DNA from: Candidatus Zixiibacteriota bacterium
GTDB taxonomy: Bacteria; Zixibacteria; MSB-5A5; WJJR01
Direction: 5' to 3'
Assembly: GCA_020058315.1 (NCBI GenBank)
Contig: JAGVEK010000484.1
Location: forward strand, 1-34,113
Length of the DNA stretch: 34,113 nt
The position numbers were made by a program, and so were the translations under genes. Positions 11,255-29,516 of the stretch are shown piece by piece (position 1 is the stretch's first letter; each line of letters begins with the position of its first letter). The notes beneath the pieces are model-generated. The model was not told where the DNA came from and ran no database searches. It worked only from the letters and a program-made list of their open reading frames with translations.

Positions 11255-11260
11255 CCCCTC

Positions 11261-14450: not shown

Positions 14451-14695
14451 ACGCGCTCTCGATTGCCGACACTTGGACGATTCGACCCGGTGAGCGTGGC
14501 GGAACCGCAAGCCGAGTTGTGGCGTAACGATGTTCATCCGAAACGCGCTCGGAGCGGAGGATGTTCCAGCCAGGTACGCGTCAAATGTGCAATGCCATCG
14601 ATGTGGGCAGTGGGTATTGGTTCAGCTCTGAGCCGATCCTGATCGGCTGGATCGCCCCTGGCGGGCGAAGGAATCCTCACCACGCAGTCTCGCCA

Positions 14696-14948: not shown

Positions 14949-14951
14949 AAC

Positions 14952-15506
14952 ATGAAACATCAGACGCAAAGAGGTGTGGCCTTGTGGGCGATTTTGGCAG
15001 CCAACAAGCCGAACAAGTACGGGTCGATTCCGGATCTTCCGGATGAGGAGCTGGCCGATCCCGAGGAGCTGGAGCGGCAGGTGTTCCTGCAGGAGTGGGG
15101 GCCGATCCTCGCGTTGCCAGTTCGGGGTGCACCAGCGTTCCGGCCGGAGATCGATGAAGACGGCTTTGTGAAGGGCGCGTTCAGCACCATGGACTTTGAC
15201 CGAATCTCGCCCAAGTTCGACAAGGTTCGTTACAAGATCGACAAGCTCAGGGAAGAGCGTCGCAATGTCCGGATGATGATCGACACGATCAGATTCCACG
15301 TTCGGGATGCGGACAAGTACGTCGTTGTCCGGTACGCATTGCGGGGCGTCATCGACATCGAGGACATCCTGGACGCGGAGCTGAAGGAACTCGTCAGGCT
15401 CTACATGAGGGTGGAGCGGCTCACGAAGGAGATCGAGCAGCTTCGGAAGGCCAGGCAGAAGAGGAGGCAGCGTGAGTTGGCGGCGATGCTGGCGCGGTGG
15501 GAGTAG
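14952..15506 (+). CDS. Hypothetical coiled-coil protein
   Basis: GGAGGTG RBS, strong GC3 bias, followed directly by a terminator. Confidence 0.8.
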   Translation: MKHQTQRGVALWAILAANKPNKYGSIPDLPDEELADPEELERQVFLQEWGPILALPVRGAPAFRPEIDEDGFVKGAFSTMDFDRISPKFDKVRYKIDKLREERRNVRMMIDTIRFHVRDADKYVVVRYALRGVIDIEDILDAELKELVRLYMRVERLTKEIEQLRKARQKRRQRELAAMLARWE

Positions 15507-15526
15507 CTCTCCCATCGTCTTTTTTT
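15495..15526 (+). terminator. Intrinsic terminator
   Basis: CGGTGGGAG-TAGCT-CTCCCATCG hairpin followed by TCTTTTTTT. Confidence 0.7.
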
Positions 15527-15537
15527 GTGCTATCGCA

Positions 15538-15596
15538 TGGTGGACGCTCGGCTGCGCCGAGGTCCCCCGCCCGCCGACCGTTCCGGTCGGCGGGGC
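15538..15596 (+). repeat. GC-rich double-hairpin repeat, copy A
   Basis: TGGTGGACGCTCGGCTGCGCCGAGGTCC...CCGCCGACCG..CGGTCGGCGG, similar to 16235-16293. Confidence 0.65.
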
Positions 15597-15712
15597 GTAA
15601 CGGCGCGTCGTGCGACTCTCCTGTCGATATCCGATTGGTGCGTTGGTAGTCTGCGCAGGTGGGCGATACGGAGCACCGTCCGCGCTGCAAGCGGTGTTAA
15701 TAGGGAGAGCCG

Positions 15713-16165
15713 ATGGACTTCAGCGCCTGGTTCAACGCTCACAAGCCTGCCGCATCGGCCAGAAGTCATGCGTTTCTGGCTGCGTCCATGTGGACCGTTG
15801 TGGGGACTGTGTTGACACTCGTCGGCGTGCGTTGGGTAATCAGCAGCAGCCTTCCCCATGCGTGGCTCTTCGTGCTCGTCGCGGTCGTGGCGGGGGTACT
15901 CAAGTCGCGATTCGTCCTCGAGCGATCGGCAGGCCGCGCAATGGAGCGCATTCGGGGGCGTGGGGACGGGCGCTGTGTCGGTGGGTTCTTTTCGTTCAGG
16001 GCGTGGGTTTTTGTGGTGGCGATGGCGTGCCTGGGAAGGATCCTGCGCGGGGGCCTGCTTCCACCTTACCTCGTTGGCCTGCTTTACATCGCGGTCGGAA
16101 TTGCGCTGGTGCTCGCCTGCTGCAAGTTGTGGGCGGGCTGGTACCGACTTGGCTCTGACGCATAG
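15713..16165 (+). CDS. Four-TM membrane protein, hypothetical
   Basis: GGGAGAG RBS; four hydrophobic segments; CVGGFFSFRAW motif. Confidence 0.85.
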   Translation: MDFSAWFNAHKPAASARSHAFLAASMWTVVGTVLTLVGVRWVISSSLPHAWLFVLVAVVAGVLKSRFVLERSAGRAMERIRGRGDGRCVGGFFSFRAWVFVVAMACLGRILRGGLLPPYLVGLLYIAVGIALVLACCKLWAGWYRLGSDA

Positions 16166-16234
16166 AGTTGAATCGCAGGTGAGCGTTGCGCCGAGGTGTG
16201 GGGATGCGACGCAGCAATGGTGAACGCTTCGCGT

Positions 16235-16293
16235 TGGAGGACGCTCGGCTCCGCCTCGGTCCGCCGTCCGCCTCGCTCCGCTCGGCGGGCGGC
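16235..16293 (+). repeat. GC-rich double-hairpin repeat, copy B
   Basis: TGGAGGACGCTCGGCTCCGCCTCGGTCC...CCGCCTCGCTCCGCTCGGCGGGCGGC. Confidence 0.65.
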
Positions 16294-16573
16294 TTTCAGG
16301 ACGGATCGAGTCGTATGAGGCACGGGAATGGAAGCGGAAGAGTTCGCGCCGAGAATGCCATCTGACTGGTTCCTTGAAGGATGCACGGCGGCGGTAATGC
16401 GGCGACACGCGAGATTATCAGATACGGGGACGACCAAACACGACAGGGAGGACTCTAACAGGTGGATGATAGAACGTGCAAACACGCCCTTTTTTCACGG
16501 GTGGAGGGGGCGGAGTGAGATAACAAATGGGAGCACTCGGAGCGTACATGCGACGAGTTCATGCGGGGAGTTG

Positions 16574-16626
16574 ACTCGGGCCGCGGGCCCGAGTTGGGGG
16601 GTCTAACCCTGCGGGGTTGACCCCCC
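16574..16626. other. Two abutting GC-rich hairpins in a non-coding gap
   Basis: ACTCGGGCC-GCG-GGCCCGAGT (16574-94) and GGGGGGTC(T)AACCC-TGCG-GGGTTGACCCCCC (16596-16626). Confidence 0.6.
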
Positions 16627-16871
16627 GGACGGGGCGACGATAACGGGCTGATGCTGATGATTGGATGGACGGAAAAGGGGAAGAAGCGGAAGGCTGAAGC
16701 AGGCGATAATGAACGGACGGAGGACGATGTGGGACTATTGGGGGCCAGAGGCTGACAAGTGGCTTGAAAACAAGGACTTACAGAACTGGAAAAGGTCGGA
16801 CTATGGGAATATTGAGTATTATCCGAGCCGGAGTCCGAGGCCGAAAGTCTACCTAATTTAACGCCGAAGCA

Positions 16872-17090
16872 TCAGAGCAGGTCTTCTTGGCAGCCTTCGA
16901 CGAGCCAGCGCTCGAACTCAATTTCAGCGAGAAGGCGCTCGCGGTCGACGCCCGTTGCCCGCGCGAACTGACCCGCCAATTCCCCCAGTCGCCGGCGCGC
17001 ACGGGCGCCGATTTCGGCCAAGCGCTCACGCGTCGCTAGCTCCAATCGGTCGTCGATTGAACCCGGCCAGATGTTCCTTTCGATGGTCAT
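16872..17090 (-). CDS. Small helical hypothetical protein
   Basis: GAGGT RBS; divergent from the 17250 operon. Confidence 0.7.
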   Translation of the reverse strand: MTIERNIWPGSIDDRLELATRERLAEIGARARRRLGELAGQFARATGVDRERLLAEIEFERWLVEGCQEDLL

Positions 17091-17124
17091 TTCGATACCT
17101 CAGAGCAGTCGAAAGAGGCCCCGA

Positions 17125-17140
17125 TTCTTAAAGGTATCGG
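17125..17140 (-). promoter_or_regulatory. BRE/TATA-like box for 17090(-)
   Basis: CCGATACC-TTTAAGAA; 23 nt from box end to the G of SD GAGGT. Confidence 0.5.
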
Positions 17141-17187
17141 TCGCACGGCGGGTCCCGTGGGGTTCGCTACTGGGGGGTAGCAAAAAG

Positions 17188-17202
17188 CGGAAAGCTTAAA
17201 TA
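17188..17202 (+). promoter_or_regulatory. BRE/TATA-like box for the 17250 operon
   Basis: CGGAAAG-CTTAAATA; SD GAGGTG at 17239. Confidence 0.5.
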
Positions 17203-17249
17203 CACGGCCGCATTTACCACCGCCAAGTGAACACTTTCGAGGTGGCAAA

Positions 17250-17858
17250 ATGTACCCAATCCAATCGTCCAACGGCCCTATCTCCACGGGCAGCTATGTC
17301 CCGTACTTCTATCAGGGCGGCGTCTTCGAGCGCTACGGGCTGCCTGCCGTGCTTCCCGGCCGCACCGGGACGCAAGAAAAAGCGATCCCGTACCGATTCT
17401 CGTCTGATCTCTCGTTAGTAAGAACGCTGGACCACGACCAAACCGTCGAGCAGATCATCGCTCACGGTTACTTCGCGCCGCCACCGGGCGATCCGATCAC
17501 GGCCATCCTATCCGACAAGAAAACCACCTCCTGGCTCGGCCTCGACGACATCATCTCGCAGGTCCGACACCGCTACGAGGTGCACCGCCAGAACATGTAC
17601 GAACTGGAACTGGCCAAATCGGCCGCGACCAACTCGCTCTACGCCCACTGGGCCTACCACGGTCTGCCCGACGCGAAACAATTCTACTCCCGCCACAAGC
17701 GTATCCAGGAGCTCTACCAGGAGCAGCGAGATGAACGGGTGAACCTCTGGCGCGATGTATCCCGACTGCGATTGGCTCTCCCCGAGACGGCCCAGGCATA
17801 CCTCTCTTCGCACCGCAAACTCACCGCCCTCGAAGGCGAACCGGGTGATGCTCCATGA
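17250..17858 (+). CDS. Hypothetical coiled-coil protein, translationally coupled to the ATPase
   Basis: GAGGTGG RBS; ATGA overlap with 17855. Confidence 0.82.
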   Translation: MYPIQSSNGPISTGSYVPYFYQGGVFERYGLPAVLPGRTGTQEKAIPYRFSSDLSLVRTLDHDQTVEQIIAHGYFAPPPGDPITAILSDKKTTSWLGLDDIISQVRHRYEVHRQNMYELELAKSAATNSLYAHWAYHGLPDAKQFYSRHKRIQELYQEQRDERVNLWRDVSRLRLALPETAQAYLSSHRKLTALEGEPGDAP

Positions 17859-19969
17859 TGACCCGCATGCAGGAACTGTGTCGAAAGCTCAAGCCGGTTC
17901 TCGGTTCAAAAGTGGACGGATTGTGGCGGGCGTACGTCGCCGATTCCGACGCCGACGGCAAAGCGGACATCGAACAAACATTGGAACTTCTGGCCGCCAA
18001 GCACCTCGGAATCGACTATCAGCCGGATCGCTCGCCATTCCCGCCGCCGGCCAGGACGTTCGCGGCCTTGGGCGACATTACAACCGGCATGGTCTCGTAC
18101 GGGACTCGCGAGTTGTATCCCTTCGCCCTTCAAAGTGGGCGTCTCAAGGAACACGTCCTGATCGCCGGAAGGAGCGGCTCTGGAAAGACCAATCTCTCCT
18201 TTGTTCTCATGCAAGGCATCATGAACCGTGGCGTCAAGATTCTGGCTTTGGACTGGAAGCGCGCCTACCGGGACCTGCTTTCGCTGCGATCGGACTTGCG
18301 TGTCTACACCATCGGGCGGGAAGTGGCGCCATTCAGATTCAACCCCTTCATTCCTCCGCCCGGCTGCGAAGTCCAAGTTTGGACCAAGCTCATCGTGGAT
18401 GTGATTGCGTCCGCGTACCTCGGCGGCGAGGGAGTCATCAGCCTGCTCATCGCGGGACTCGATCGGCTCTATCCGGAAGCCCGCGACAAGAGACGCTGGC
18501 CGACGGTCATCGATCTTCTGACCTGGCTGCGGACCGTCAAACTCCGAGGCCGTGCGGCGATGTGGCAAGCGTCGGCCGAGAGAATTCTTCTCGCCATGAC
18601 CTACGGCGAGTTCGGTGCCGTCCTCAACACCCAGGACAACAGCCATCTGCAACACCTTCTCGATCACAATGTCATCCTGGAGATGGATGGTCTGTCGAGT
18701 TCCTCCGATCGGGTGATGTTCTCGGAGGCCATCACGCTCTACCTCTATCGCTACCGGCTGTCCCTTGGGCCGCGAGAACAGCTGACCAACGTCATTGTCC
18801 TCGAGGAAGCCCACAACCTACTCCTCGCTAAGCAGACGGGGACGAAGGAATCTGGCCTTGAGACCTCCATTCGAATGATCCGTCAGTACGGGCTCGGCTA
18901 CGTCTTCGTCGATCAATCGGCGTCCCTGTTGAGCCGGGTGGCTTTCGCCAACTCCTACGTGACCTTCGCGCTCAGTCAGAAACTCCGTGCGGACATCAAG
19001 ACCATGTCCGGGGCGATGAATTTGTCCGAAGAACAGGAGGAGGCGTTGAGCACTCTCCCGATAGGATCGGCAGTCGTGCGCCTGGCCGACGAGCATCCTG
19101 AACCATTCCTGATCCGGATCCCGCGCTGCTCGATCCGGGAAGGAAGCGTCTCCGATTCTGCGATTCGAAGTCACATGGCGGCTTATTCCGCTGAGTCCGC
19201 GGTGAATAGTCCGCCGCGCTTTGAACTACCGGCGGTTCCACCGGTTCCGGCCCCAGATAAAAACAACATTGAAATCAACCTAACGACAATTATTCCCCAC
19301 CCACCATCCCCCGAAAGATCACCCGAATGCTCGGATTCATCCGACTCGACCATCCGCGATACGATTCCCGATCCACCCCATTCTAAACTCTCTCGAGAGA
19401 CAATTCGCTTCCTTACTGATATAGCCGCCCGGCCGCTATCGACTACTGTCTCTCGTTATCAACGATTGCATCTGTCCCGTCGAAAAGGTAACGCCATCCG
19501 TCATGATCTACTCGCCGCCGGCATCATCGAAGCCGTCCCCCTCGCCACCCGCACCGGGCAGGTCATGCTCTTTCAGTTGACCGACTTCGGTCGTCAGATC
19601 TGTAACGACATCGGTGTGGATCCCGGTCCTCCGCCCCGCGCCAGCCTCGAACATCAATACTGGGCCCATCGCGTGGCCGAGATGTACGAGAAGCAGGGTT
19701 ATGAAGTCGCGCTTGAGCATGCCGTGGCCGGCAACGGAATCGTCGACGTCGTCGCCGAGCGCGCTAGTGAGCGCCTGGCCATTGAGATCGAGACAGGCAA
19801 GTCAGACATCCAAGCGAACATCGAGAAGCTGCGAGGCATGGGTTTCGATCGAGTCCTCCTCGTGGCCACCTCGCCATCCGCGATTAGCGCCTGCCAGCGG
19901 GCGCTGGATTCCGTCCCGCGGGAAGCCCGGCAGGCAGTTGAACTCTTGACATGGCTGGATGTGCCATAG
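17855..19969 (+). CDS. HerA/VirB4-like (DUF87) ATPase fused to Pro-rich linker, winged helix and PD-(D/E)xK nuclease-like domain
   Basis: HVLIAGRSGSGKTN (Walker A), LDWKRAY, IVLEEAHNL (Walker B), RQYGLGYVFVDQS. wHTH ...LLAAGIIE...FQLTDFG. EH...VDVVAE...LAIEIETGK. Confidence 0.88.
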   Translation: MMTRMQELCRKLKPVLGSKVDGLWRAYVADSDADGKADIEQTLELLAAKHLGIDYQPDRSPFPPPARTFAALGDITTGMVSYGTRELYPFALQSGRLKEHVLIAGRSGSGKTNLSFVLMQGIMNRGVKILALDWKRAYRDLLSLRSDLRVYTIGREVAPFRFNPFIPPPGCEVQVWTKLIVDVIASAYLGGEGVISLLIAGLDRLYPEARDKRRWPTVIDLLTWLRTVKLRGRAAMWQASAERILLAMTYGEFGAVLNTQDNSHLQHLLDHNVILEMDGLSSSSDRVMFSEAITLYLYRYRLSLGPREQLTNVIVLEEAHNLLLAKQTGTKESGLETSIRMIRQYGLGYVFVDQSASLLSRVAFANSYVTFALSQKLRADIKTMSGAMNLSEEQEEALSTLPIGSAVVRLADEHPEPFLIRIPRCSIREGSVSDSAIRSHMAAYSAESAVNSPPRFELPAVPPVPAPDKNNIEINLTTIIPHPPSPERSPECSDSSDSTIRDTIPDPPHSKLSRETIRFLTDIAARPLSTTVSRYQRLHLSRRKGNAIRHDLLAAGIIEAVPLATRTGQVMLFQLTDFGRQICNDIGVDPGPPPRASLEHQYWAHRVAEMYEKQGYEVALEHAVAGNGIVDVVAERASERLAIEIETGKSDIQANIEKLRGMGFDRVLLVATSPSAISACQRALDSVPREARQAVELLTWLDVP

Positions 19970-20082
19970 GCCACGAGACCTACGCGGCGCCTATTCGAAA
20001 TCAGCGCCGACATCGGCGCGGCGAGCGTTACAATGGTGCTTACTGTCGCACGGTGCGGACCGCGACTGAGCTTGGGACCATC

Positions 20083-21045
20083 ATGGAACTTCTGAGCCGC
20101 TTCCAAGGTTGTATTGTCGGGCTTGCCATCGGCGACGCGTTGGGGCGCCCTACGGAATTCCTCCACACTTTGGCGGCCATCCACGCCCGATTCGGGGCTG
20201 ACGGCGTTACGGACCTCGAACCCGACGGTCATCCGGCCGGAACCTACACCGACGACACGCAGATGACGCTTTGCGTGGCCCGGGCCCTGATCCTCGCTGG
20301 GCACGAGTCGCTTGACACGCTCATGTCGGCCATGGTCAAGGAGTTCGTCGAGTGGAGCCGATCGGCGGAGAATGATCGCGCTCCGGGCACTACATGTATG
20401 GCCGGATGCCGGAATCTGAGTAGCGGCATCGAATGGCGGGTGGCCGGGATCGTGGGCTCAAAAGGGTGCGGCAGCGCCATGCGGACGGCGCCGATCGGAC
20501 TGTTCTATCACGACAACGAACGAGAGCTGATCGAGGTGGCGCGGGCCAGTTCGTTGCCAACGCATGGTCACCCGACCGCTCTCGCGTCGGCCGCCGCCAC
20601 CGCGCTGCTCACGGCCTGGGCGCTTCATGGCGATGAGCCGGCGGAATTTCCTTCGCGGCTGGCCACGGTCATGCGGGAAATGGAGGGCGGCGAAGAAGTG
20701 GCTGTCCTTGCGGCACGTATTCCCGAGTTGCTGAGCGCTGCACCGGAGTCGGTGCTGCGAAAGGACGTGCTGGGCGAGGCCTGGGTTGGCGATGAGGCGG
20801 TCGCCTGCGCTTTGTATTGTTTCTGCCGGAGCCCGCGGGATTACCGAACGACAGTGCTTACGGGCGCCAACACGATTGGCGATTCCGATAGCATTGCGTG
20901 CATCGCAGGCGCCATCAGCGGCGCTTACAACGGACTTGATGCGATCCCGAAGAAGTGGCGGCAGCGAATCGAGAAGTCAGACGAGCTGCATCGGGTTGCC
21001 GAAGAATTGTTGCGGTCCGCCGGCGTCTCAACCCCGGGATCATGA
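20083..21045 (+). CDS. ADP-ribosylglycohydrolase (DraG/ARH family)
   Basis: GLAIGDALG, YTDDTQMT, GCGSAMRTAPIG, THGHP, GDSDSIACIAGAISGA. Confidence 0.93.
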   Translation: MELLSRFQGCIVGLAIGDALGRPTEFLHTLAAIHARFGADGVTDLEPDGHPAGTYTDDTQMTLCVARALILAGHESLDTLMSAMVKEFVEWSRSAENDRAPGTTCMAGCRNLSSGIEWRVAGIVGSKGCGSAMRTAPIGLFYHDNERELIEVARASSLPTHGHPTALASAAATALLTAWALHGDEPAEFPSRLATVMREMEGGEEVAVLAARIPELLSAAPESVLRKDVLGEAWVGDEAVACALYCFCRSPRDYRTTVLTGANTIGDSDSIACIAGAISGAYNGLDAIPKKWRQRIEKSDELHRVAEELLRSAGVSTPGS

Positions 21046-21175
21046 TCGTGCGCATCACTACTGGCCCTTCTGACGGCCTTTGCGGGACTGCTATTCCATC
21101 GCGTTGGCGTATCGTGGGCTCCGCGGGCAACAAGTCGGTTTTTCTGTGGCTCGAATTTGATCCTCGGGGACTGAC

Positions 21176-21805
21176 TTAAACATGGGTCTGTACGGCGCTC
21201 GAATCAGCGGGAACGACTTTCTTGAGGGCCTCAAAGAGAAGATGGGTCAGGAACGCGTCGTCCCCCGCTTGATGGAGTTGAGCTGTGGCCGTTTGAATGC
21301 CGAGGAACGTAAGGCAGGTAGCGAGGGAGAACTTAAGTCCGGGCGCGCGGGTCTCAAGCACGCGGTCGGCATACTTCTTGAAAGTCTCATCCGACCTTCG
21401 TTCCATCTTAAGCTTCCAGCCCTTGTAGAGCGCCGCCGTGTCAACGAAATGCCCGAACTCTGGCACGGGCGTGCCCAGGCGCCGACACTCGGCGATTAGG
21501 AACAGGATGTCGAACCGATGGATGTTGTGTCCCACGCACGAGGGAGCCGTGGAAAGTACCCCGAGCAGGCGCGTCAGGCTCTCGTGCGGCGGAATACCGC
21601 GCGCACGAATGTCGGCTGTGGTGATCCCGTGGACCATCCGCGCCTCCGGCGGGACCTCGACGTTCTGGTTCACCAGCCAGCCGGATCGTTCGGTCACGAC
21701 TCCGTCGCACACCTTGCAAAGTCCGACCTGGATGATGCGGTCCGTCCGTGGATTGAGGCCGGTGGTCTCAACATCGAAGACCAGGTAGGAGTCCGTGGGT
21801 GACAT
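21176..21805 (-). CDS. DEDDh 3'-5' exonuclease (DnaQ/PolC-like)
   Basis: ExoI FDVETTG, ExoII VGHNIHRFD, ExoIII HQAGDDA. TATGAT 7 nt before ATG 21805 suggests a leaderless start (alternative 21817). Confidence 0.9.
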   Translation of the reverse strand: MSPTDSYLVFDVETTGLNPRTDRIIQVGLCKVCDGVVTERSGWLVNQNVEVPPEARMVHGITTADIRARGIPPHESLTRLLGVLSTAPSCVGHNIHRFDILFLIAECRRLGTPVPEFGHFVDTAALYKGWKLKMERRSDETFKKYADRVLETRAPGLKFSLATCLTFLGIQTATAQLHQAGDDAFLTHLLFEALKKVVPADSSAVQTHV

Positions 21806-21876
21806 ATGCAAGATCATAGGCGAGGCTGTAGTCGGTCGACCAGGTCCATGATACTGAGTTTACGAGGTGAAATTCA

Positions 21877-22311
21877 TCAACGCGCTCTGCAATCAGGCAA
21901 GCGTGCGTACACGGGACCACTAACCAACGAGTTGCCGATCAGAACAGCAGGCGGCAATCCGAATGGCTGCGGCGTGACCCGGTATGGACTGATCATGACC
22001 GCCGGGATTGGCACCGCGGGGTACCGCAGAGTGGCACGGGTGCCGAATGGCCCGCGCGGAACGGGCCACGTCACAGGGTAGGCAAGGAGACGAGGCTGCA
22101 CTCCAACGCCTGGCGCATACAAAGGTACGGGCGGTCGGGGCCAATTCGGCGAAAGGCAAACATCAGGACCTGCGGCCGACGCAAAACTCACCCCCGGACC
22201 AGGTCCCGAAGCGCCGTACTGCCCAGCCAGGACGGTGGGCAGAAGAATGGCCATAAGGATGAGCCCACCGATCAGCTCTGGCGTTGCATGCGCTGGCGAC
22301 TTGCGGCTCAT
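21877..22311 (-). CDS. Pro-rich protein with N-terminal TM/signal segment
   Basis: LIGGLILMAILLPTVLA then Pro-rich tail. ATGA overlap with the upstream gene. Confidence 0.6.
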   Translation of the reverse strand: MSRKSPAHATPELIGGLILMAILLPTVLAGQYGASGPGPGVSFASAAGPDVCLSPNWPRPPVPLYAPGVGVQPRLLAYPVTWPVPRGPFGTRATLRYPAVPIPAVMISPYRVTPQPFGLPPAVLIGNSLVSGPVYARLPDCRAR

Positions 22312-22739
22312 GGGTGTTCGAGGTCTGGCCGGCGGTAGCCGTGAATCTGCTGGTGCCGATATTCGGCCTGGGCGCGCTGATACTCGGCATGAACGCGCCG
22401 CATCAGGGTTTCGTCCCAGCGGGTGGTACTCAAGTCCTGGTCGCGGGCTACAAGGGCCGCGATTCCGTTGAAACGATAGACGCGCTGACGCTCGGCGTAG
22501 TCGACGCCGCTGTTCGGGTCAGCGTATTCGACCACGAGGCTGTCGTAGGTCGGCAGCGTGAAGGTTGGATGCCAGATGTCATGGTAGCCCTGGTCATAGA
22601 TCAAACGCGGCTGGCGGTAGAAGAACGGAGTGTCGTATCGGTCCATCATCCGGCCAATGCGGGCCTCGACATCGGTCTGATACGGCGGTTCCAGTTTGCC
22701 AAGTTTGGGGTCCGGCGGTTCGTAGGTCTTGGAATTCAT
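22308..22739 (-). CDS. Degenerate PD-(D/E)xK nuclease-fold protein
   Basis: EARIGRMMDRY..PFFY...WHPTFTLP...LVVEY...Y...RVYRFNGI follows the 'YPDFxLP...IEYxG' pattern but has T in place of the catalytic D. GAGGTGA RBS. Confidence 0.65.
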   Translation of the reverse strand: MNSKTYEPPDPKLGKLEPPYQTDVEARIGRMMDRYDTPFFYRQPRLIYDQGYHDIWHPTFTLPTYDSLVVEYADPNSGVDYAERQRVYRFNGIAALVARDQDLSTTRWDETLMRRVHAEYQRAQAEYRHQQIHGYRRPDLEHP

Positions 22740-23809
22740 GGTTGGTTCACCTCGGGTGTTTGTTGGGTAACGTGTTGAGCGACGGCGAGGAGTTTTTTCT
22801 CGGTGCGATCGATGAGCTTGAAAAGGCGCGTGTTGTGAGCTTGGAGTTTCTCGGCGCCCTTGAGCAGGTCGGGCACTCTCCGGTACTCATGTCGCTTGAG
22901 GGCCTCCGCGGCCTCCGCGGTCACATGGTGGATGCGGCGCTCGGCCTCGGCGCAGGCGCGGTCTAGACGTTCGAGGCGTAGATCCAGCTTGAGCTCCTTG
23001 AATCGGGTACTGAGTTCTTCGCCGAGTTTCCGCTTCCCTTCCGCAGGCAGCTTCGAGAGGACGTCGCGGATCTCCTCGATCCGGGCCACCTGTCCCTCGC
23101 GCATGTGGTAGGCCCTCTCGCGAAGGGCCGCGAGGCGCTCGGTCAGATAGCCCTCCGCGGGAAGAATGCGCCGGAGCTGGAGCATGAGGTCGTTTTCCAG
23201 CTCCGGGCGGTCATCAAGGAGATCTGCCTCCCGCCGCGCCCGGCGCAACTGGTTGACGAGCGCACCGGCCAGGTGGCGGTCACGGTAGAGTCGAACGGGG
23301 TCGTTTCGCACGGACGGAACCGCGGCTGGGGTTTGTGGGCGCCAGCGGCGGTTATCTTGGCGGTGGTTGCCCAGGGCGAGAAGTCCTACCAATAGTGCGA
23401 CCGTTGTGATCGTTTGGAGCACCTGCTCGTTGATTGGCCATGGGATGCCGAGGATCCAGCCTATCAGGATGCTCACGCCGAAGGTGAACGACAGACCCGC
23501 AATGGTCCCGCCGATGGCGCGGATCGCCCGGTACATGACGGCGGCAAGAAGTAGAAGGGCGAAGGCCACGGCGATGGGACCGAGGCTTCTGATGGAATAG
23601 CCGTTCTCTGCCTCCCACCACACGAGGCCTGTTGAAAGCGCCACGCCGATCGCCAGAGAGGCTACGGCGGCGGAGCGCTTGTTGAACTTGTCGCTCAACG
23701 CAGCGAAACAGAGGGCGGTGAAGAAGGCCACGGCCAGTACGAAGTCAGGGAAGAATTCATGAAGAAGCGTCCCTCTCGCCAACTCTGCCGCCTCGTCCGC
23801 GCGCGCCAT
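22736..23809 (-). CDS. Multi-pass membrane protein (about 5 TM) with long cytoplasmic coiled coil
   Basis: Hydrophobic N-half, R/E/L-rich heptad C-half. Likely start MARADEAA at 23809 with no SD. Confidence 0.85.
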   Translation of the reverse strand: MARADEAAELARGTLLHEFFPDFVLAVAFFTALCFAALSDKFNKRSAAVASLAIGVALSTGLVWWEAENGYSIRSLGPIAVAFALLLLAAVMYRAIRAIGGTIAGLSFTFGVSILIGWILGIPWPINEQVLQTITTVALLVGLLALGNHRQDNRRWRPQTPAAVPSVRNDPVRLYRDRHLAGALVNQLRRARREADLLDDRPELENDLMLQLRRILPAEGYLTERLAALRERAYHMREGQVARIEEIRDVLSKLPAEGKRKLGEELSTRFKELKLDLRLERLDRACAEAERRIHHVTAEAAEALKRHEYRRVPDLLKGAEKLQAHNTRLFKLIDRTEKKLLAVAQHVTQQTPEVNQP

Positions 23810-23831
23810 GAAGGGAAGTGGGGCTTGGTTG

Positions 23832-23847
23832 TATTTATATCTTACTG
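23832..23847 (-). promoter_or_regulatory. BRE/TATA-like box for the membrane-protein operon (leaderless geometry)
   Basis: CAGTAAGA-TATAAATA then 22 C-rich, SD-free nt then ATG 23809. Confidence 0.6.
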
Positions 23848-23932
23848 TTCTTTGGATCTCGCAGCAGAGCGCGACCGCCATTCCCAGGACTGGACCATCT
23901 TCTCGTTCGTGGTGTCACCCCTCCCAAGGGGT

Positions 23933-23948
23933 GCGATAGCTTTATGTA
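23933..23948 (+). promoter_or_regulatory. BRE/TATA-like box for cdc6
   Basis: GCGATAGC-TTTATGTA; 23 nt later GAGTTGAT (SD-like) begins at 23972. Confidence 0.55.
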
Positions 23949-23977
23949 TTAGTGCGCTTTATACGCCACCAGAGTTG

Positions 23978-25078
23978 ATGAGCACCGTGGATTTCGAATC
24001 CTATTTCAAACACCAGCGCGAACGGATCGAGGAAGAGGCCAAACTAATCAAGGACTTCTCGGTCTTCAGCTTCCACTACGTTCCTGATGAACCGGTGCTT
24101 CGGCCCGAGGCCACCCTGCTGATCGATGAGCTCGCCAACTTCAACCTGTCCGGCATACCCACGCACCTGGCAATCGTTGGTAGCCGAGGCTCGGGTAAGA
24201 CCCTCACGGTCAAGTACCTGGAGCGCGTCGTGCAGCGGGAGTCGGACCTGGAGATCCTCTACGCCAACTGCCGCCATCACGACACGAGCTTCAAGATCTT
24301 CGCCCATCTTCTGGGCATCCACGCCCGTGGGGCTAGTATGAGCGAGGTGTTCGAGCGCTTTTGCGCCCGTTGCCGCAGAAAGACGGTGGTGGTCCTGGAC
24401 GAAGTCGACCTCATGAGTCCCAAGGACCGACGCCGTGAGATTCTGTACCTTCTCAGCCGGGCAGCACAGCCCTTCATGGTCATGATGCTCTCCAACAGCC
24501 CGCAGGTGCTCAAGGAGCTGGATGCCGCCACGCGGAGCAGCCTCCAGCCCGTTCCGGTCCACTTCAAGAACTACAATGCGGATCAGATCCGCGACATTCT
24601 CCGCGACCGCGCGCAGCGCGGGCTGCATCGTTGGGAAGAAGCCGACCTCTCGGAGATTGCCGCCTTGACTACGAAGTTCAGCAATGCCGACGCCCGCTTG
24701 GCGATCAAGACCCTGCAGTACCATGTGACCGGCCGGGCCAAGGACCTTCGCGCCTGCTTCGAACGCGCGCGGCGGGACCTCGTCGTGGACCTGGTCTGCG
24801 ACCTCTCGGACAGCACCCTGGCCATCCTCTGGGCTGCCGCCACCAACGACTCGGACTTTGCCCGAAGCATCTACGAGCGGTATTGTGCCCACTGCCGGCA
24901 GCGCCATGAAAAGCCGTTCAGCTACGTCCACTTTCATTCGAACCTGAGCTACCTGCAGAGCGCCGGCCTAGTTGCGTTGGTCTCGACCAAGCAAGGACGC
25001 ACCTACGCCAACCGGGTACTGTTGACCTTCGACCGGAACATGGCCCGTGAAATCGCCGGGCTGCGCTTCGAAGCCTGA
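23978..25078 (+). CDS. cdc6: Orc1/Cdc6-family replication initiator (AAA+ ATPase + C-terminal winged helix)
   Basis: FSFHYVPDEPVLR, IVGSRGSGKT (Walker A), YANCR, VVVLDEVD (Walker B), LYLLSR, LDAATRSSL, FKNYNADQIRDILRDRA, DARLAI (sensor II), wHTH YERYC..C...PFSYVHFHSNLSYLQSAGLV...GR. Start is ATG 23978 or GTG 23987. Confidence 0.88.
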   Translation: MSTVDFESYFKHQRERIEEEAKLIKDFSVFSFHYVPDEPVLRPEATLLIDELANFNLSGIPTHLAIVGSRGSGKTLTVKYLERVVQRESDLEILYANCRHHDTSFKIFAHLLGIHARGASMSEVFERFCARCRRKTVVVLDEVDLMSPKDRRREILYLLSRAAQPFMVMMLSNSPQVLKELDAATRSSLQPVPVHFKNYNADQIRDILRDRAQRGLHRWEEADLSEIAALTTKFSNADARLAIKTLQYHVTGRAKDLRACFERARRDLVVDLVCDLSDSTLAILWAAATNDSDFARSIYERYCAHCRQRHEKPFSYVHFHSNLSYLQSAGLVALVSTKQGRTYANRVLLTFDRNMAREIAGLRFEA

Positions 25079-25158
25079 CACCGGGCACGGATGGCTCGAC
25101 TTTTCCAGGCTGATTCTCGCCTTGTCTTGCGGAGCAGTGCCCTAATCTGGAAATGCTA

Positions 25159-25448
25159 ACACTGTGCGGAGTGAATACGCGGCCGTCTCCCGATGTGGTG
25201 GCATGCTCGTTCTTCCAATCGCGGATTGGGTGATCTTCCCGCATCATCACCGCGCGCAGTTAACACGTGGCAGCCATTTGTTCTTGGCGGGTGTCCATCA
25301 CTCCGGTGCCCGCCTGCTCCCATCCTGATTCTCGAACACGCTGTGCGTGTTAATGCGTGGCCGCATCCCAGGGCCGTGGTACATTCCTTCCTCAGATCCC
25401 TGGCTTCGCCATCAACCCGGCCTGTCACACTGTGCGCAGTTAACACGT
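25159..25448 (+). repeat. Four ~22-bp direct repeats at 88/90/90-bp spacing (iteron/ORB-like)
   Basis: ACACTGTGCGGAGTGAATACGC (25159), TCACCGCGCGCAGTTAACACGT (25247), ACGCTGTGCG-TGTTAATGCGT (25338), ACACTGTGCGCAGTTAACACGT (25427). Confidence 0.85.
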
Positions 25449-25530
25449 GGGCACCTACCCATGTGTGTGGTGTCCTGCGTCCTTCCCGTCTTTTCTTCCT
25501 GATTCTTCACTCCGTCCGAAGACTGCTTCC

Positions 25531-25573
25531 GACATACCTATATATGACATACCTATATATATTGCTACAATAT
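25531..25573. other. AT-rich tract with a 15-bp tandem duplication (DUE candidate)
   Basis: GACATACCTATATAT x2 (25531-25560) then ATTGCTACAATAT; among the most AT-rich stretches in a GC-rich window. Confidence 0.7.
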
Positions 25574-25615
25574 GGAAAGGAATAGGAAGGAAGGACCCCG
25601 CGGCCGGGGGCGTTG

Positions 25616-25637
25616 GCGTGTTAACTCCGCACAGTTT
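25616..25637 (-). repeat. Inverted fifth copy of the 22-bp repeat
   Basis: Reverse complement reads AAACTGTGCGGAGTTAACACGC. Confidence 0.85.
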
Positions 25638-26265
25638 GCTTTGACCTTCCAAGCCCAACTGGTCGCCGTTTGCCAGGCGCAGGGCGCCTTCGGAGTGCGA
25701 ATCTGCCGCGCACGCGGGAACGCCAGAATGCCGTAATCTCATCTACAGCCAGGGCTGATGCAGGGATCAGCCCTGTTCCGTATCGAGGGTCGTAGCGCTC
25801 GGCGTACAGGGCAGCGAGGCGATACCCGGTGCGAACCGACTCCCAGGGTCGCAGCACGCACTCCATCGCGTACTCCGCCAGCAGACCTTCCTTATAGTGG
25901 ATGATGCGGACATCGGCCCAGCGATGATGCTCAACCTCGCTTTGTGAATCCCGGAGGTCTTCGTACGCGGCCCGCAACGCCTCGCGACATACCGACCCCG
26001 GCCTGCGAAGATGCGATCGGATGACCCTCACCGCGCGATCGATCAGCGGGCGAAACTTCTTCTTGGCCTTGGGTCGGGCCAATTGGGTCAAGTGCAGCCC
26101 GAATGCAACCGTATCCGCCGGATCCGAGCAAAACTCCTTGAGCAGAGTGAGCCGCGTGATCTGGAAATGCTGGCCGTTTCGCAGCTGGGCGGCGATTTCG
26201 ACCAAGCGATTGATCTTCACCGCCGCTTTGTCTGGATCAATCACGTTCAATGGTGCTCCCATCAT
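25621..26265 (-). CDS. Hypothetical protein
   Basis: Protein-like core FQITRLTLLKEFCSD...YAERYDPRYGTGLIP. Start uncertain. The stop lies inside the inverted origin repeat. Confidence 0.75.
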   Translation of the reverse strand: MMGAPLNVIDPDKAAVKINRLVEIAAQLRNGQHFQITRLTLLKEFCSDPADTVAFGLHLTQLARPKAKKKFRPLIDRAVRVIRSHLRRPGSVCREALRAAYEDLRDSQSEVEHHRWADVRIIHYKEGLLAEYAMECVLRPWESVRTGYRLAALYAERYDPRYGTGLIPASALAVDEITAFWRSRVRGRFALRRRPAPGKRRPVGLGRSKQTVRS

Positions 26266-26332
26266 ACCACCGACACCGTGGCCTCAATCGATCCGCGGCT
26301 TGCTGCCGCAATGCGAGTACCGCGCGGGGACA

Positions 26333-26347
26333 GCACAGTTTTATATA
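26333..26347 (+). promoter_or_regulatory. BRE/TATA-like box for the Zn-ribbon operon
   Basis: GCACAGT-TTTATATA; 23 nt later SD GAGGTGATC begins at 26371. Confidence 0.6.
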
Positions 26348-26383
26348 CCAGGGTCCCTCCCATGTCCCGCGAGGTGATCAATC

Positions 26384-26710
26384 ATGGGAAGGCGATACAA
26401 GTGCGTTTGGTGCAGTTCCGGCGAGACGACCGGCAAAGGGGTTCGGCGCACAAAGACGATGGGGAATCGGCGAATTTGCCGCTGTAAGGCCTGCGGCCGA
26501 AAGTTCACGCCGAAATACCAGCCTGAAGTCTCGGTGACTTCGGGCCCTGATCAAACACGATCGTCGGCCATCGATCCGCAGAAGCTTGCGAAGCCTGCGC
26601 AACTCTGCAACTCAGCCCCAAAACAAGATCAGGCCAGCACTCCCATCGGCTATAAACCCGAGCAAGGAGACGCCGAACACGGCCTTTCGGAGAATGGCCC
26701 CAGCGCTTGA
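26384..26710 (+). CDS. Zn-ribbon protein (InsA-like CxxC...CxxC) with disordered tail
   Basis: YKCVWCSSGETTGKGVRRTKTMGNRRICRCKACGRKFTP; GAGGTGATC RBS. Confidence 0.78.
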   Translation: MGRRYKCVWCSSGETTGKGVRRTKTMGNRRICRCKACGRKFTPKYQPEVSVTSGPDQTRSSAIDPQKLAKPAQLCNSAPKQDQASTPIGYKPEQGDAEHGLSENGPSA

Positions 26711-27500
26711 CCGCTCCGGGCTCCTCACCCGCACCTTCCAGATGAGCGAGGCGGTCGAGCGGTTTGTCGGCGCCGCACGGGCGTTCTTCTACGAGGTCGC
26801 GCTGTCGGGTCGGCAATGTCCCGTCTGCGGTGGTCGCCTAGCGATGAGCGGTGAAAGTCGCTGTCGTTGCGAGACCTGCGGGCAGGAGTCGGACCCGACA
26901 TGTGCGTTCCAGCGGTGCCCGGCGTGCGGAGGCAGCCCACGGCTCCGCGTCCGGCGATATGAGTGCGAAATCTGCGGCATGGACATGCCGTCGCGTTTCG
27001 TCTTCGACGGATTGGTGTTCGATGTCGAGTACTTTCGGCAGAAGATGGAGGAGCATCGCCAGAGGACCGCGGGGCGTATGGAGCGTGTCCGTGAGATGCT
27101 TGCGGCGAGCCGATCGCCGGCAATCGCGGCAGGCCCGTTGGACCTGGCCAATCATCCCGGCTTGCTTGATGCACTGGACGCACTGGTAGACGGCTCTCCC
27201 GTCGCCCTCCAAATCGAGCCGCGCTCGAGATTCGATCTCAAGGCCTACCAGGCGCATGTACAGGCTAATCTTGGGACACTCGGGCGCGACTTCGATGAGA
27301 TCCCCGCCCTGCGATCTGATGACCGGTTTGACCGCGTGTGGCGGTTTATCGCGGTCATATTCCTCGCCCACGAGGGTCGCGTGAGGGTCGTTCAGGATGG
27401 CGAGGAGATCATGGTGATGCAACGTGAAACTGACCGAGAAGGACAAGACATTTCTGGAGAACTTGAAGAGGCTGATGGAGTCGAAGGACTTGTGGGTTGA
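26694..27500 (+). CDS. Double Zn-ribbon protein with ScpA/kleisin-like C-terminal winged helix
   Basis: CPVC, CETC, CPAC and CEIC pairs. C-terminal DRVWRFIAVIFLAHEGRVRVVQDGEEIMV resembles the ScpA 'FLALLxLxxxGxIxxxQ...I' motif. Start 26694 or 26742. Confidence 0.75.
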   Translation: MAPALDRSGLLTRTFQMSEAVERFVGAARAFFYEVALSGRQCPVCGGRLAMSGESRCRCETCGQESDPTCAFQRCPACGGSPRLRVRRYECEICGMDMPSRFVFDGLVFDVEYFRQKMEEHRQRTAGRMERVREMLAASRSPAIAAGPLDLANHPGLLDALDALVDGSPVALQIEPRSRFDLKAYQAHVQANLGTLGRDFDEIPALRSDDRFDRVWRFIAVIFLAHEGRVRVVQDGEEIMVMQRETDREGQDISGELEEADGVEGLVG

Positions 27501-27903
27501 ACTCAAGCCCGGCCAACCCAGCCACATGGTCCTTCGCGGTACCTACGGAGAGAAAGTTTATCGGGCCTTTCGCATGACTCGGCAGGGCGTGCGCTGGCGC
27601 TTCTGGCGTATCTATAATGATATCTACATTTCTGCGTTCGAGGCCATTCTCTTCGTGGAAACCACATTCGGCACTCAGCTCCGCGAACATGCGATCCGAA
27701 TCAGCAAGGAGCGGTATGCGCTGCGGCAGGAGGCGTTGGGAAGCGAGTTTGAAAGCGCGAGCGTGGTGCGGGATGGAAGTGACGATTCTCCGAAGGCCCC
27801 AGTCTCGGAGAGTGATCATACCAAGCACCCGGATCACGAACCGCATGACTCCAACGCGGCCGAAGGTGCTCAGCCTCAGGAGCCGCGAGGTGACGGCCGA
27901 TGA
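27424..27903 (+). CDS. Hypothetical protein, possible HTH
   Basis: GGTGA RBS before GTG; FRMTRQGVRWRF resembles an HTH recognition helix; overlaps both neighbours. Confidence 0.75.
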   Translation: MKLTEKDKTFLENLKRLMESKDLWVELKPGQPSHMVLRGTYGEKVYRAFRMTRQGVRWRFWRIYNDIYISAFEAILFVETTFGTQLREHAIRISKERYALRQEALGSEFESASVVRDGSDDSPKAPVSESDHTKHPDHEPHDSNAAEGAQPQEPRGDGR

Positions 27904-28319
27904 GCGAACCGAGCAAGATCGATTTCCGGCATCGGCGCATTCGGGAGATCGAAGATATCACGGACATCGTGGCGATGATCTTCCCAGGCAACACGAATCA
28001 GCAAAACGCGGCGGCACGGATACTTCTCACATTAAAGGCCGCCGCGGAAACGGTCCCATCGTTGCGAGTTCTTGAGGAACAACATGGCATCTCGCGCCGA
28101 ACGCTCGAACGCACGCGGGCCAAGCTGGCTCATGTTGGCCTGATCGAAAACATCGGGCCGCTGAGCAAGCGGGCAAATGGTCACCCAGGCTGGCGGCTCT
28201 CGGGGCGGATGAGCGGCGCGATGCGCCTCCTTGCCGAGAAGATTGATACATGGAAAACCGACACGAGGCCGGAGCGCCAAGAGAAGGATGAGAGGCTGGT
28301 AGGGATGCAGTTATCGTGA
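27900..28319 (+). CDS. Winged-helix DNA-binding protein
   Basis: LRVLEEQHGISRRTLERTRAKLAHVGLIE...GWRLS; GAGGTGA RBS; ATGA overlap. Confidence 0.8.
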   Translation: MSEPSKIDFRHRRIREIEDITDIVAMIFPGNTNQQNAAARILLTLKAAAETVPSLRVLEEQHGISRRTLERTRAKLAHVGLIENIGPLSKRANGHPGWRLSGRMSGAMRLLAEKIDTWKTDTRPERQEKDERLVGMQLS

Positions 28320-28418
28320 ACGACCCTATTGCGAGGGAAGCACGCCGGACGCCGCGCAGCGCAGGCCCGTGACCATAGGTGACTTGTGCCGTAACTGAGG
28401 CCTTCTTACGCTGGGCGT

Positions 28419-29516
28419 ATGAAAAGGCGAGTCTTACGGATCCTTTTCTATTCGATTGTCGGTCTCGCCGTTGTCACGTTAATGTTCTTCCTTTGGTTTT
28501 CGCACAGTCCAACCACGCAACTCATCGACGCTTCTGGAAAGGAACTTACCGCCGGTACCGCCCCCCAGGGAGATGAAGAGGTTCTCGACGGCTCGCTCTT
28601 CGAAGAGGCTCAGGCGCTGATCAAACGCAAGGAATTCGCAGCGGCCAAGGAGCGGCTCCTCCGGGTCATCGAGGAATCCAACCGCGATGGCGAGGCCTGT
28701 ATTCTCCTCTGCGACGTTTCGCGCGAGCTCAAGGACGTGGCGGCAGCCGCGGACTACGGTCTGAAGGCTGTTGAACTTCTGCCGGGCAGCGCCGAAGCGC
28801 ACCTCGCCTACGCGAAAGCACTCGGGGCACAACTCGCCGCCGACATGCAGAGCATCAGCGGCATGCTTGGCGCCATGAAGCGGCTGGGGCTCTTCAAGGC
28901 CGAGCTCAACCGGGTGATCGAACTGAATCCCCAGGACACCGAAGCGCGAACGATGTTGGTGTTTACCAATATGGCCCCCAAGCCCATCGGCGACATCGAT
29001 CGAGCGGTCGAGCTCTGCGGGGAGATCGAGGCGCGCGATCCTATCATGGGAAAGCAACTACTCGCCATGTGCTACCAGAGGAAGAAAGAGACCGAGCGCG
29101 CCATCGCGCTCCTGCTGGCCGGAATCGAAGAGTATCCAGAAGAATGCAGCCTTCACGCCGCTCTCGCGGATATCTACGCCGAGGAGAAACGCTTTGATGC
29201 CGCGGACGCGGAGTACGAGGCGGCGCGTCGTGGTGAGAAAGGTAAGGCCTACTACCGCTCGCTGTATGGCCAGGCACGGATGCGCATCCAGAACCAGTTC
29301 GAGCCCGCGCGGGCGGTCGAGTTGCTCAACGAGTTCATCAGGGGCGAGCCTGAAAGCGACGGCATGCAGACCGTGGCTCACGCCTGTTGGCGCAAAGGCA
29401 ACGCGCTCGAACAACTGGGCCGGAAACAGGATGCCCGCGAAGCGTACGAGGAGAGCCTCCGTCGGGATCCTAGTCTTGAACTAGCCAAGAAGGCGATCGC
29501 CGGTTTTTCTGAGTGA
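28419..29516 (+). CDS. Membrane-anchored TPR protein
   Basis: N-terminal basic + TM segment; TPRs such as AEAHLAYAKAL and ACWRKGNALEQLGRKQDAREAYEESLRRDP. Confidence 0.88.
   Translation: MKRRVLRILFYSIVGLAVVTLMFFLWFSHSPTTQLIDASGKELTAGTAPQGDEEVLDGSLFEEAQALIKRKEFAAAKERLLRVIEESNRDGEACILLCDVSRELKDVAAAADYGLKAVELLPGSAEAHLAYAKALGAQLAADMQSISGMLGAMKRLGLFKAELNRVIELNPQDTEARTMLVFTNMAPKPIGDIDRAVELCGEIEARDPIMGKQLLAMCYQRKKETERAIALLLAGIEEYPEECSLHAALADIYAEEKRFDAADAEYEAARRGEKGKAYYRSLYGQARMRIQNQFEPARAVELLNEFIRGEPESDGMQTVAHACWRKGNALEQLGRKQDAREAYEESLRRDPSLELAKKAIAGFSE

Follow-up and report, generated by a model that had tools for sequence, protein, structure and literature searches.

Which transcription machinery reads a promoter of archaeal appearance inside a bacterium? 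The question is raised by a stretch of 34,113 nucleotides (nt) from a Candidatus Zixiibacteriota bacterium (contig JAGVEK010000484.1 of the assembly GCA_020058315.1, in our numbering contig C143), which we call the window. It carries an accessory element whose conserved backbone genes include those for an Orc1/Cdc6-family initiator and a HerA/FtsK-type ATPase, together with cargo genes. A preliminary description, made from the sequence letters, had pointed to five boxes ahead of backbone operons which resemble an archaeal TATA box preceded by a B recognition element (BRE). Here we demonstrate that four of these boxes belong to one directional motif of 20 nt, that this motif is restricted to the element and that its distance to start codons or ribosome binding sites is tightly kept. 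That the motif is an element-specific promoter is in our view well supported.

A 20-nucleotide motif restricted to the element

All five box sequences that had been described are present in the window, on the strands and at the positions given there (Table 1). A/T-rich octamers are, however, common here (89 clusters of octamers with at least seven A/T letters out of eight), so that the bare observation of five boxes is unconvincing by itself. For comparison we used a scan for related loci with one genome per species, which returned 65 loci. In these loci, the regions upstream of the genes for the initiator, the zinc ribbon protein zn108 and the protein p357 are conserved at the DNA level. Expectation maximisation (one site per sequence, width 20) on 101 non-identical upstream regions of these three genes converged on GGAGCGAAAGGTTTATATAC, and a clear copy is found in 100 of the 101 regions; for the initiator gene the count is 51 of 52 non-identical regions. 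The consensus of the 20-nt motif is GGnGCGAAAGnTTTATATAC. Its octamer TTTATATA occupies motif positions 12-19 with 0.9-1.7 bits per position, and the upstream part CGAAAG ends with the most conserved position of the whole motif, an A with 1.9 bits.

The resulting weight matrix was run over the complete assembly on either strand, 5.5 million positions in all. Boxes 3, 4, 2 and 5 reach 21.1, 20.2, 20.1 and 19.5 bits, respectively. A single site, on contig C524, scores higher (21.9 bits), and after these five the next best match has 16.7 bits, so that no further site reaches 17 bits. Box 2 was outside the training set of the matrix, yet obtains its 20.1 bits. Boxes 2 to 5 are thus true members of the directional motif, far beyond chance. 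Box 1 scores 12.0 bits, which is inside the genome background (60 matches of at least 10 bits); it is a weak match which cannot be distinguished from background by its score. Its sole comparative support comes from locus L044, where a 20.6-bit box occupies the equivalent divergent position, 22 nt ahead of GGTGAT.

We also considered that the motif could be a promoter type used throughout the host genome. This is ruled out by the genome scan, which restricts the motif to the element, and by the A/T octamers of the genome, which show no peak at 22-23 nt before candidate ATGs.

The best match of the assembly lies on the minus strand of contig C524 of the same assembly (G000, positions 543-584). 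It precedes by 22 nt an ATG without ribosome binding site which opens a basic open reading frame (ORF) of 72 amino acids of no known family. This copy might represent a stray promoter of this type, or the remnant of one.

In the related loci the motif is frequent, with 106 matches of at least 17 bits within 341 kb. At a threshold of 15 bits, the window and the loci L010-L084 together hold 138 non-identical copies. The motif is even found in eight of nine distant loci with a p202-HerA operon, in which the first protein, p202, is only 24-26% identical (alignment A6). All classified copies are located upstream of a gene, are oriented with it and keep a fixed distance to its start codon or ribosome binding site. 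The 20-nt motif can also serve as a practical marker for operons of this element in metagenomes.

One might argue that the motif is no promoter at all but is bound by an element protein concerned with replication, partition or silencing, and has come to lie between genes by chance. After all, several DNA-binding proteins are encoded on the replicon-like element, and four to five copies occur within about 9 kb. Against this, each classified copy is co-directional with the following gene, at a fixed distance to its start codon or ribosome binding site. The motif is asymmetric and its orientation tracks the gene, and the repeats which resemble initiator sites (see below) have a different sequence. 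We therefore regard a non-promoter role as very improbable.

A copy of the motif with the sequence GGTGGGAAAAGTTTATAAAG occurs in distant versions of the element (L055:4165-4184, L056:1424-1443, L058:6591-6610, L063:6545-6564, L065:4209-4228 and L071:2081-2100). The conserved stretch ..AATAGCC..GATCGATATAGCC comes after it, lacks an obvious start codon and may be the gene of a small non-coding RNA.

The distance between motif and gene is conserved

The preliminary description had reported 23 nt between the box and a Shine-Dalgarno (SD) or SD-like site in three cases, 22 nt to an ATG without SD site in one case and a more distant SD site for the gene at 17250. These distances are correct for boxes 1, 4 and 5, for box 3 and for box 2, respectively (Table 1). 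One qualification concerns box 4, where the GAG does lie at 23 nt and is at the same time part of a half site resembling the origin repeats.

Both motif and spacing are kept in the homologous loci; the lack of conservation that the preliminary description had named as a refutation is thus not observed. Octamer and ATG are 22-23 nt apart in 25 of the 26 non-identical promoters of the p357 genes, which we anchored by protein alignment. There is no ribosome binding site, and in-frame stop codons are found upstream, often as a TAA within the box itself. In the zn108 type, 26 of 28 non-identical copies have 22-23 nt between the octamer and GAGGTGA. The initiator type shows 22-24 nt to a GGAGTT site in 19 of 23 copies, a count in which two of the 23 are artefacts of the search pattern. 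The p202 type differs in its arrangement and is uniform (nine of nine): the box is followed after about 10 nt by TTACCAC and at 36-37 nt by the ribosome binding site. The distant p202-HerA operons also have TTACCAC about 10 nt after the motif and the ribosome binding site at 36-37 nt. In 33 copies an ATG is found at 21-23 nt and no word resembling a ribosome binding site intervenes; as an ATG at 20-25 nt was the defining criterion of this class, the range is partly a matter of construction. By spacing, 45 of the 138 copies remain unclassified.

The length of the spacer is kept while its sequence drifts. For the 17 copies with exactly 23 nt, pairwise identity falls from 0.68 within the motif to 0.50 in the spacer and 0.28 further upstream.

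For p357 an alternative start at 23881 was considered. It is ruled out by the homologue lengths and by upstream in-frame stops in most loci: 20 of 21 complete homologous ORFs are longer than 300 amino acids, and 18 of the 21 measure 357-361 amino acids from the equivalent ATG, so that p357 of the window starts at 23809.

We suggest that transcription begins about 23 nt downstream of the octamer. In that case the octamer would extend from about -31 to -24 and the CGAAAG part from about -38 to -33, as in archaeal promoters. At this presumed start a pyrimidine mostly precedes a purine. The likeness to archaeal promoters that had been put forward is thus borne out in three respects, namely an A/T octamer, a CGAAA-like element upstream of it and about 23 nt to an ATG without SD site.

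A bacterial host, with no TBP or TFIIB match in its incomplete assembly

The window is part of a 2.75-Mb assembly of 571 contigs which is 59% complete. The host is bacterial: the assembly contains five sigma-70 region-2 matches, a single Rpb1-type RNA polymerase subunit and, at its 59% completeness, no match to Rpb5/RpoH, and the tetranucleotides of the contig are typical for the bin. We considered a mis-binned archaeal contig, which is ruled out on three grounds. The tetranucleotide profile of the contig lies centrally within the bin (21st among 173 contigs of at least 5 kb), the flanks carry genes of bacterial type, and relatives of the element reside on contigs of up to 721 kb that are labelled Phycisphaerales. 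The stretch 17000-27500 is likewise not atypical in its tetranucleotide make-up.

The preliminary description had proposed that the backbone might be read by TBP/TFB-type machinery, either after recent transfer between the domains or encoded elsewhere. A search of our 59% complete assembly for TBP, TFIIB and the archaeal RNA polymerase subunit Rpb5 gave no match, which speaks against this machinery. TBP (PF00352) is also without a match in nine other bacterial carriers of the element (thus in ten of ten), and TFIIB (PF00382) gave none in the six assemblies searched for it, that is our own and five carriers of 3.0-8.6 Mb; the remaining four carriers were searched for TBP only. Completeness is reported for our assembly and not for the other carriers. 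The sole carrier with TBP is L057 (G290), a bin labelled 'uncultured archaeon' with two TBP genes. Eight sigma-70 matches in the same bin mark it as mixed, so that it does not show an archaeal host. Recent transfer does not fit either, since the initiators of the element family have diverged to about 43-45% identity within bacterial assemblies, with the motif kept throughout.

Could the boxes still be true TBP/TFB-type promoters, with divergent, unrecognised analogues of these proteins, encoded by the element or the host, recruiting the polymerase? Motif and geometry closely match the archaeal layout as published, the element has an archaeal-type initiator and origin-like repeats, and several of its conserved proteins have no assigned fold, including two zinc ribbon proteins. 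The counts just given (TBP in none of ten bacterial carriers, TFIIB in none of six), the mixed nature of the only TBP-positive bin and the polymerase genes of our assembly, with one Rpb1-type subunit and no Rpb5, argue against it. In addition, TFB acts through contacts to the archaeal polymerase that the bacterial enzyme lacks. We consider this explanation very unlikely.

The boxes as possible plain -10 elements of the host

Cargo and backbone genes differ in their promoters, as had been proposed. A cargo gene has TGTATAAT 6 nt before its ATG at 11261 (window 11247-11263) and the exonuclease gene has TATGAT on the minus strand 7 nt before an in-frame ATG (window 21803-21818), both without ribosome binding site. 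In the whole genome, near-consensus TATAAT words peak 6 nt before candidate ATGs (13 versus about 5). The cargo genes thus appear to have host-type promoters, and the host appears to use ordinary ones. The division into backbone and cargo is real, since the ADP-ribosylglycohydrolase, the exonuclease and the 214-amino acid ORF are found in one, none and one of the 65 loci, whereas the backbone genes recur.

A caveat is that the octamer may simply be the -10 box of the housekeeping sigma factor. Transcription would then start 6-8 nt further on, CGAAAG and the flanks would be operators of a regulator, for example of the protein p139, and the fixed 22-23 nt would reflect a conserved short leader. 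The hexamers TATAAA or TATATA are indeed contained in the octamer, the element does encode a MarR/Rrf2-like winged-helix protein, and the spacers are partly conserved in a leader- or operator-like manner, for instance with GTCCCGY just before the ATG or the ribosome binding site. We scanned positions 16500-28500 for TTGACA-like and TATAAT-like hexamers 16-18 nt apart, with A2 and T6 required in the -10 hexamer, and found three sites versus 3.0 expected from shuffled sequences, none of them at a box. The best-conserved octamer positions end in ..ATA, so that the T is missing at the last position of a -10 hexamer. A start 6-8 nt after the octamer would also leave p357 with a GC-rich leader of about 15 nt without SD site whose length is held within 1 nt in 25 of 26 promoters, whereas host-type promoters of the same genome place the -10 box 6 nt before ATGs without SD site. 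Finally, the motif is not palindromic, unlike the usual operators of MarR-type regulators. We regard the plain -10 interpretation as unlikely, while taking it seriously.

A suggested mode of transcription

We suggest that the boxes form the core of a single strand-specific promoter of 20 nt, which heads the transcription units of the backbone and is read by the host polymerase with the help of a factor from the element. On balance we favour this reading, with restrained confidence. Because the motif is confined to a patchily distributed element, an alternative sigma factor of the host is an unlikely reader, and this favours the core polymerase of the host guided by an element-encoded specificity factor; TBP and TFB would have no part in it. 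An element-specific factor had already been offered as an alternative in the preliminary description and is in our eyes the best reading. Candidates for the factor are the predicted winged-helix protein p139, the zinc ribbon proteins zn108 and p252, or the initiator itself.

A related view is that a replicon of archaeal ancestry, which has long resided in Planctomycetota and other bacteria, still uses its BRE/TATA promoters at about -27 together with ATG starts without SD site. Archaeal-type promoters used at about -27 in a bacterial cell would need an element-encoded factor that replaces TBP and TFB in their role. This view is possible and we hold it with considerable doubt.

Several points weigh against the reading by host polymerase and element factor. 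First, the spacing is the sole basis for a start point at 23 nt. Backbone genes are represented by pieces of 95-99% identity in three sediment metatranscriptomes from one study, data which consist of contigs without starts, strand or level and in which uncovered parts are uninformative. One RNA contig of 262 nt begins at about 23970-23972, that is 22-24 nt after box 4; its depth is low and it cannot show a 5' end, so that this is a weak hint at most. Second, four of the five promoter classes share a moderately A/T-rich patch 10-14 nt beyond the octamer. This patch might act either as a weak -10 element or as an archaeal-type proximal element, and is not decisive. Third, neither sequence nor profile comparison reveals a likeness of any element protein to TBP, TFB or a sigma factor, and an element-encoded factor which binds the motif is thus a candidate only. 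For p252, one of the proteins in question, the fold model is too poor to judge (predicted local distance difference test, pLDDT, of 60). Fourth, the copies of the motif share descent, and our counts are those of non-independent events. Fifth, we know of no bacterial promoter class with its main element at -24 to -31, and a new mode of polymerase recruitment must therefore be assumed.

Genes of the element

The features of the element are compiled in Table 1.

Table 1. Features of the element in the window, with the boxes and the distance from box to start codon or ribosome binding site
Feature	Position	Strand	Remarks
72-amino acid ORF	16872..17090	-	downstream of box 1; from the ORF list
Box 1	17140..17125 (20-nt motif 17124..17143; octamer 17132..17125)	-	CCGATACC-TTTAAGAA, octamer TTTAAGAA; weak copy of the motif; GAGG (17101) 23 nt away
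Box 2	17188-17202 (20-nt motif 17184..17203; octamer 17195-17202)	+	CGGAAAG-CTTAAATA; heads the p202/HerA operon; AGGTGG (17240) 37 nt away
Element downstream of box 2	17213..17220	+	TTTACCAC; conserved in related operons; class consensus
p202	17250..17858	+	mostly helical; first gene of the HerA operon
HerA/FtsK-type P-loop ATPase	17855..19969	+	704 amino acids; Pfam DUF87 (8.3e-8) and HerA_C
ADP-ribosylglycohydrolase	19951-21045	+	cargo; Pfam 8.6e-78
DEDD exonuclease	21176-21817	-	cargo; Pfam 3.5e-18
p143	22308..22739	-	small conserved protein; in 19 of 65 loci
p357	22736..23809	-	N-terminal membrane-like half, C-terminal coiled-coil-like half
Box 3	23847..23832 (20-nt motif 23831..23850; octamer 23839..23832)	-	CAGTAAGA-TATAAATA, octamer TATAAATA; ATG 23809 without ribosome binding site 22 nt away
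Box 4	23933-23948 (motif 23930..23949; octamer 23941-23948)	+	GCGATAGC-TTTATGTA; ahead of the initiator gene; GAG (23972) 23 nt away
Two half sites resembling the origin repeats	23956..23983	+	GCTTTATACGC, CAGAGTTGATGAGC; between box 4 and initiator start
Initiator, Orc1/Cdc6-family AAA+	23978..25078	+	366 amino acids
Candidate replication origin	25160..25638		repeats of about 23 nt, three direct and one inverted, around A/T-rich 25538-25573
214-amino acid ORF	25621..26265	-	cargo; no Pfam match; in 1 of 65 loci
Box 5	26333-26347 (20-nt motif 26329..26348; octamer 26340-26347)	+	GCACAGT-TTTATATA; GAGGTGA (26371) 23 nt away
zn108	26384..26710	+	conserved N-terminal zinc ribbon, variable tail
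p252	26742..27500	+	double zinc ribbon (four CxxC pairs), C-terminal domain
p139	27900..28319	+	predicted winged-helix DNA-binding protein, MarR/Rrf2-like

The initiator matches TIGR02928 over residues 24-341 with an E-value of 3.1e-37 and 128 bits (below the cut-off of 181) and shows a weak match to the Pfam domain Cdc6_C. Its best solved relatives are archaeal Orc1/Cdc6 structures, with E-values from 1e-18 (best 1.1e-18) to 5e-10. The protein thus combines an AAA+ module with a C-terminal winged helix and is related to the archaeal proteins, as is characteristic for Orc1/Cdc6.

The HerA-like ATPase matches the NCBIfam family CedD (1.6e-19, far below the cut-off) and the PADLOC profile mad8 (8.5e-12). 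p202 belongs to no Pfam, NCBIfam or PADLOC family, and its homologues (24-44% identity) are always encoded upstream of a HerA-like gene. For p357, the assignment of the two halves was read from the consensus sequence and not from a predictor. p143 might be a nuclease of the PD-(D/E)xK type, a guess for which there is a weak match to the T7 endonuclease I profile (E = 0.39).

Conservation of zn108, seen in 25 of the 65 loci, concerns its first 40-60 residues. The cysteines of p252 are invariant (alignment A3) and eight to nine of 11 members give weak zinc ribbon matches in Pfam; in the Protein Atlas the protein falls into unnamed clusters of its own, with in addition a weak lead to ScpA at 0.80. 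p139 has a weak Rrf2 match in eight of ten members, and its model (pLDDT 74.5) finds MarR-family regulators as best fold matches, which are weak (E = 3e-3, TM about 0.4). Profile searches with p252, p139 and p143 against solved structures gave nothing significant.

Some further ORFs were examined and discarded. Those at 26838-27527 and 27409-27846 on the minus strand are treated as antisense shadows of real genes, the former because its identity to the relatives is lower than that of p252 on the opposite strand, the latter because its start codon is missing in most related loci. A frameshift joining zn108 to the next ORF is not needed, as p252 has its own ATG at 26742. For the 72-amino acid ORF downstream of box 1 no homologue was found in the 65 related loci, most of which do not reach this side of the element.

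No Rfam family was detected in the window, no integrase among the ORFs scanned, and no convincing direct repeats mark the ends of the element. Beside the element, about 2.3 kb of the window (14500-16870) contain only ORFs whose translations look unlike proteins and match no family; a direct repeat of 38 nt is found there at 15538 and 16235. This region may be degraded sequence or the border of the element.

Distribution of the element

Among 8000 candidates scored, 588 relatives of the initiator were found at E of at most 0.001. The 120 matches listed have 57-98% identity, are mostly 362-373 amino acids long and are labelled, where named, Phycisphaerae or Planctomycetota. A search of 14 genomes of the same family did not find the initiator in any of them. 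The 65 related loci are mostly labelled Planctomycetota; several assemblies contain two or three copies, and one copy is on a 721-kb contig. Around the initiator, p357 recurs in 29, p252 in 26, HerA in 13 and p139 in ten of the loci; the last two counts are limited by the flanks of 3 kb. The HerA operon is located downstream of the initiator in L044, L055, L057, L058 and L065 and upstream of it in the window. Such a circularly permuted gene order would be in line with integration of a circular form at varying points. The element thus looks like a patchy, often multi-copy accessory element, a small replicon of archaeal style. IMG/VR contains a single match of 25% identity. Full-text literature searches, which do not cover subscription journals, gave no paper on an Orc1/Cdc6 element in Planctomycetota, and the element appears to be undescribed in the searchable literature.

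Origin-like repeats and control of the initiator gene

Downstream of the initiator gene we find repeats with the core GTTAACTCCGCAC, three of them direct (25160-25182, 25248-25270 and 25428-25450) and one inverted (25616-25638). A strict 13-nt repeat core is located just after the initiator gene in 18 of the 65 loci, often as an inverted pair, and occurs once in the whole assembly. To judge by its arrangement, this region looks like an origin of the archaeal kind with recognition boxes. The only good match of sigma-70 type within 16500-28500 (ATGACA, 16 nt, TACAAT, with TG; 25544-25571) falls inside the A/T-rich stretch of this candidate origin.

We also considered that the boxes themselves are binding sites of the initiator. 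This is unlikely, as the origin-like repeats differ in sequence from the box motif and fit that role. The two half sites ahead of the initiator gene are conserved in the relatives as GGTTTAYGCGT and GGAGTTGATGCGT and are similar to the repeats behind the gene when these are read in reverse complement. The GAG near box 4 belongs to the second half site, which suggests that the initiator controls its own gene. We propose that the initiator binds the origin-like repeats and probably represses its own gene via the two half sites.

Directly upstream of box 4 lies a palindrome, CCCC-N6-GGGG (23918..23931). In the relatives it reads CCAC-N6-GTGG, and both arms co-vary in an alignment of 53 loci. It could be an operator or a hairpin.

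Comparison with known promoters and origins

In archaeal promoters the 8-bp A/T TATA box has its centre about 27 nt ahead of the transcription start, the BRE lies about 33 nt ahead of it, a proximal element rich in A/T is found near -10, and the start itself is a purine (+1) preceded by a pyrimidine at -1 (PMC5316973). For haloarchaea, the published BRE sequence is CGAAA (PMC4983044). Measured against these descriptions, the motif of the element appears to fit well. It has an 8-bp A/T octamer of the type TTTAWATA, directly preceded by a purine- and A-rich element similar to CGAAA, and the octamer is centred about 27 nt before ATGs without SD site. The pyrimidine-purine step at the presumed start and the A/T patch about 10-14 nt ahead of it agree with the layout as well. 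It differs in that the hosts are bacteria with sigma factors, that the motif is private to one element and that the carriers searched gave no match to TBP, TFIIB or Rpb5. Our full-text searches, with the coverage given above, found no paper on archaeal-like promoters in bacteria.

Promoters which are private to a mobile element are known from phages. The late promoters of phage T4 have TATAAATA at about -10 and are read by the sigma-like gp55 together with gp33 and the clamp. This 8-bp A/T element is identical to that of box 3, there is no -35 element and the promoters are private to the phage; the T4 box is, however, situated at about -10, whereas the spacing in the element points to about -27. 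Among the element proteins we found no match of gp55 or sigma type in Pfam, NCBIfam and PADLOC, where a very divergent one is possible. T4 middle promoters come closer in position. They have a MotA box near -30, work by sigma appropriation and keep a good sigma-70 -10 box (TAnnnT). As suggested for the element described here, a private motif near -30 takes the place of the -35 box in T4, and the reader is encoded by the phage and cooperates with the host polymerase. In place of this -10 box, our element shows only a loose A/T patch, and the copies in the window are without a -10 box. A conserved class of bacterial promoters with its main element at the position of the archaeal and eukaryotic TATA box would be new, if true. 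It would open to test whether a TATA-like box at about -27 can recruit a bacterial RNA polymerase, and through which protein.

The comparison extends to replication. As in archaeal origin modules, direct and inverted repeats of about 23 nt surround an A/T-rich stretch downstream of the initiator gene, and repeat-like sites are also found in the promoter region of the initiator itself. Unlike those modules, the one described here, with its candidate origin, resides in bacterial assemblies and is accessory and often present in several copies. An element that combines an archaeal-type initiator with origin-like repeats in many bacterial assemblies bears on how replication and transcription modules cross between the two domains.

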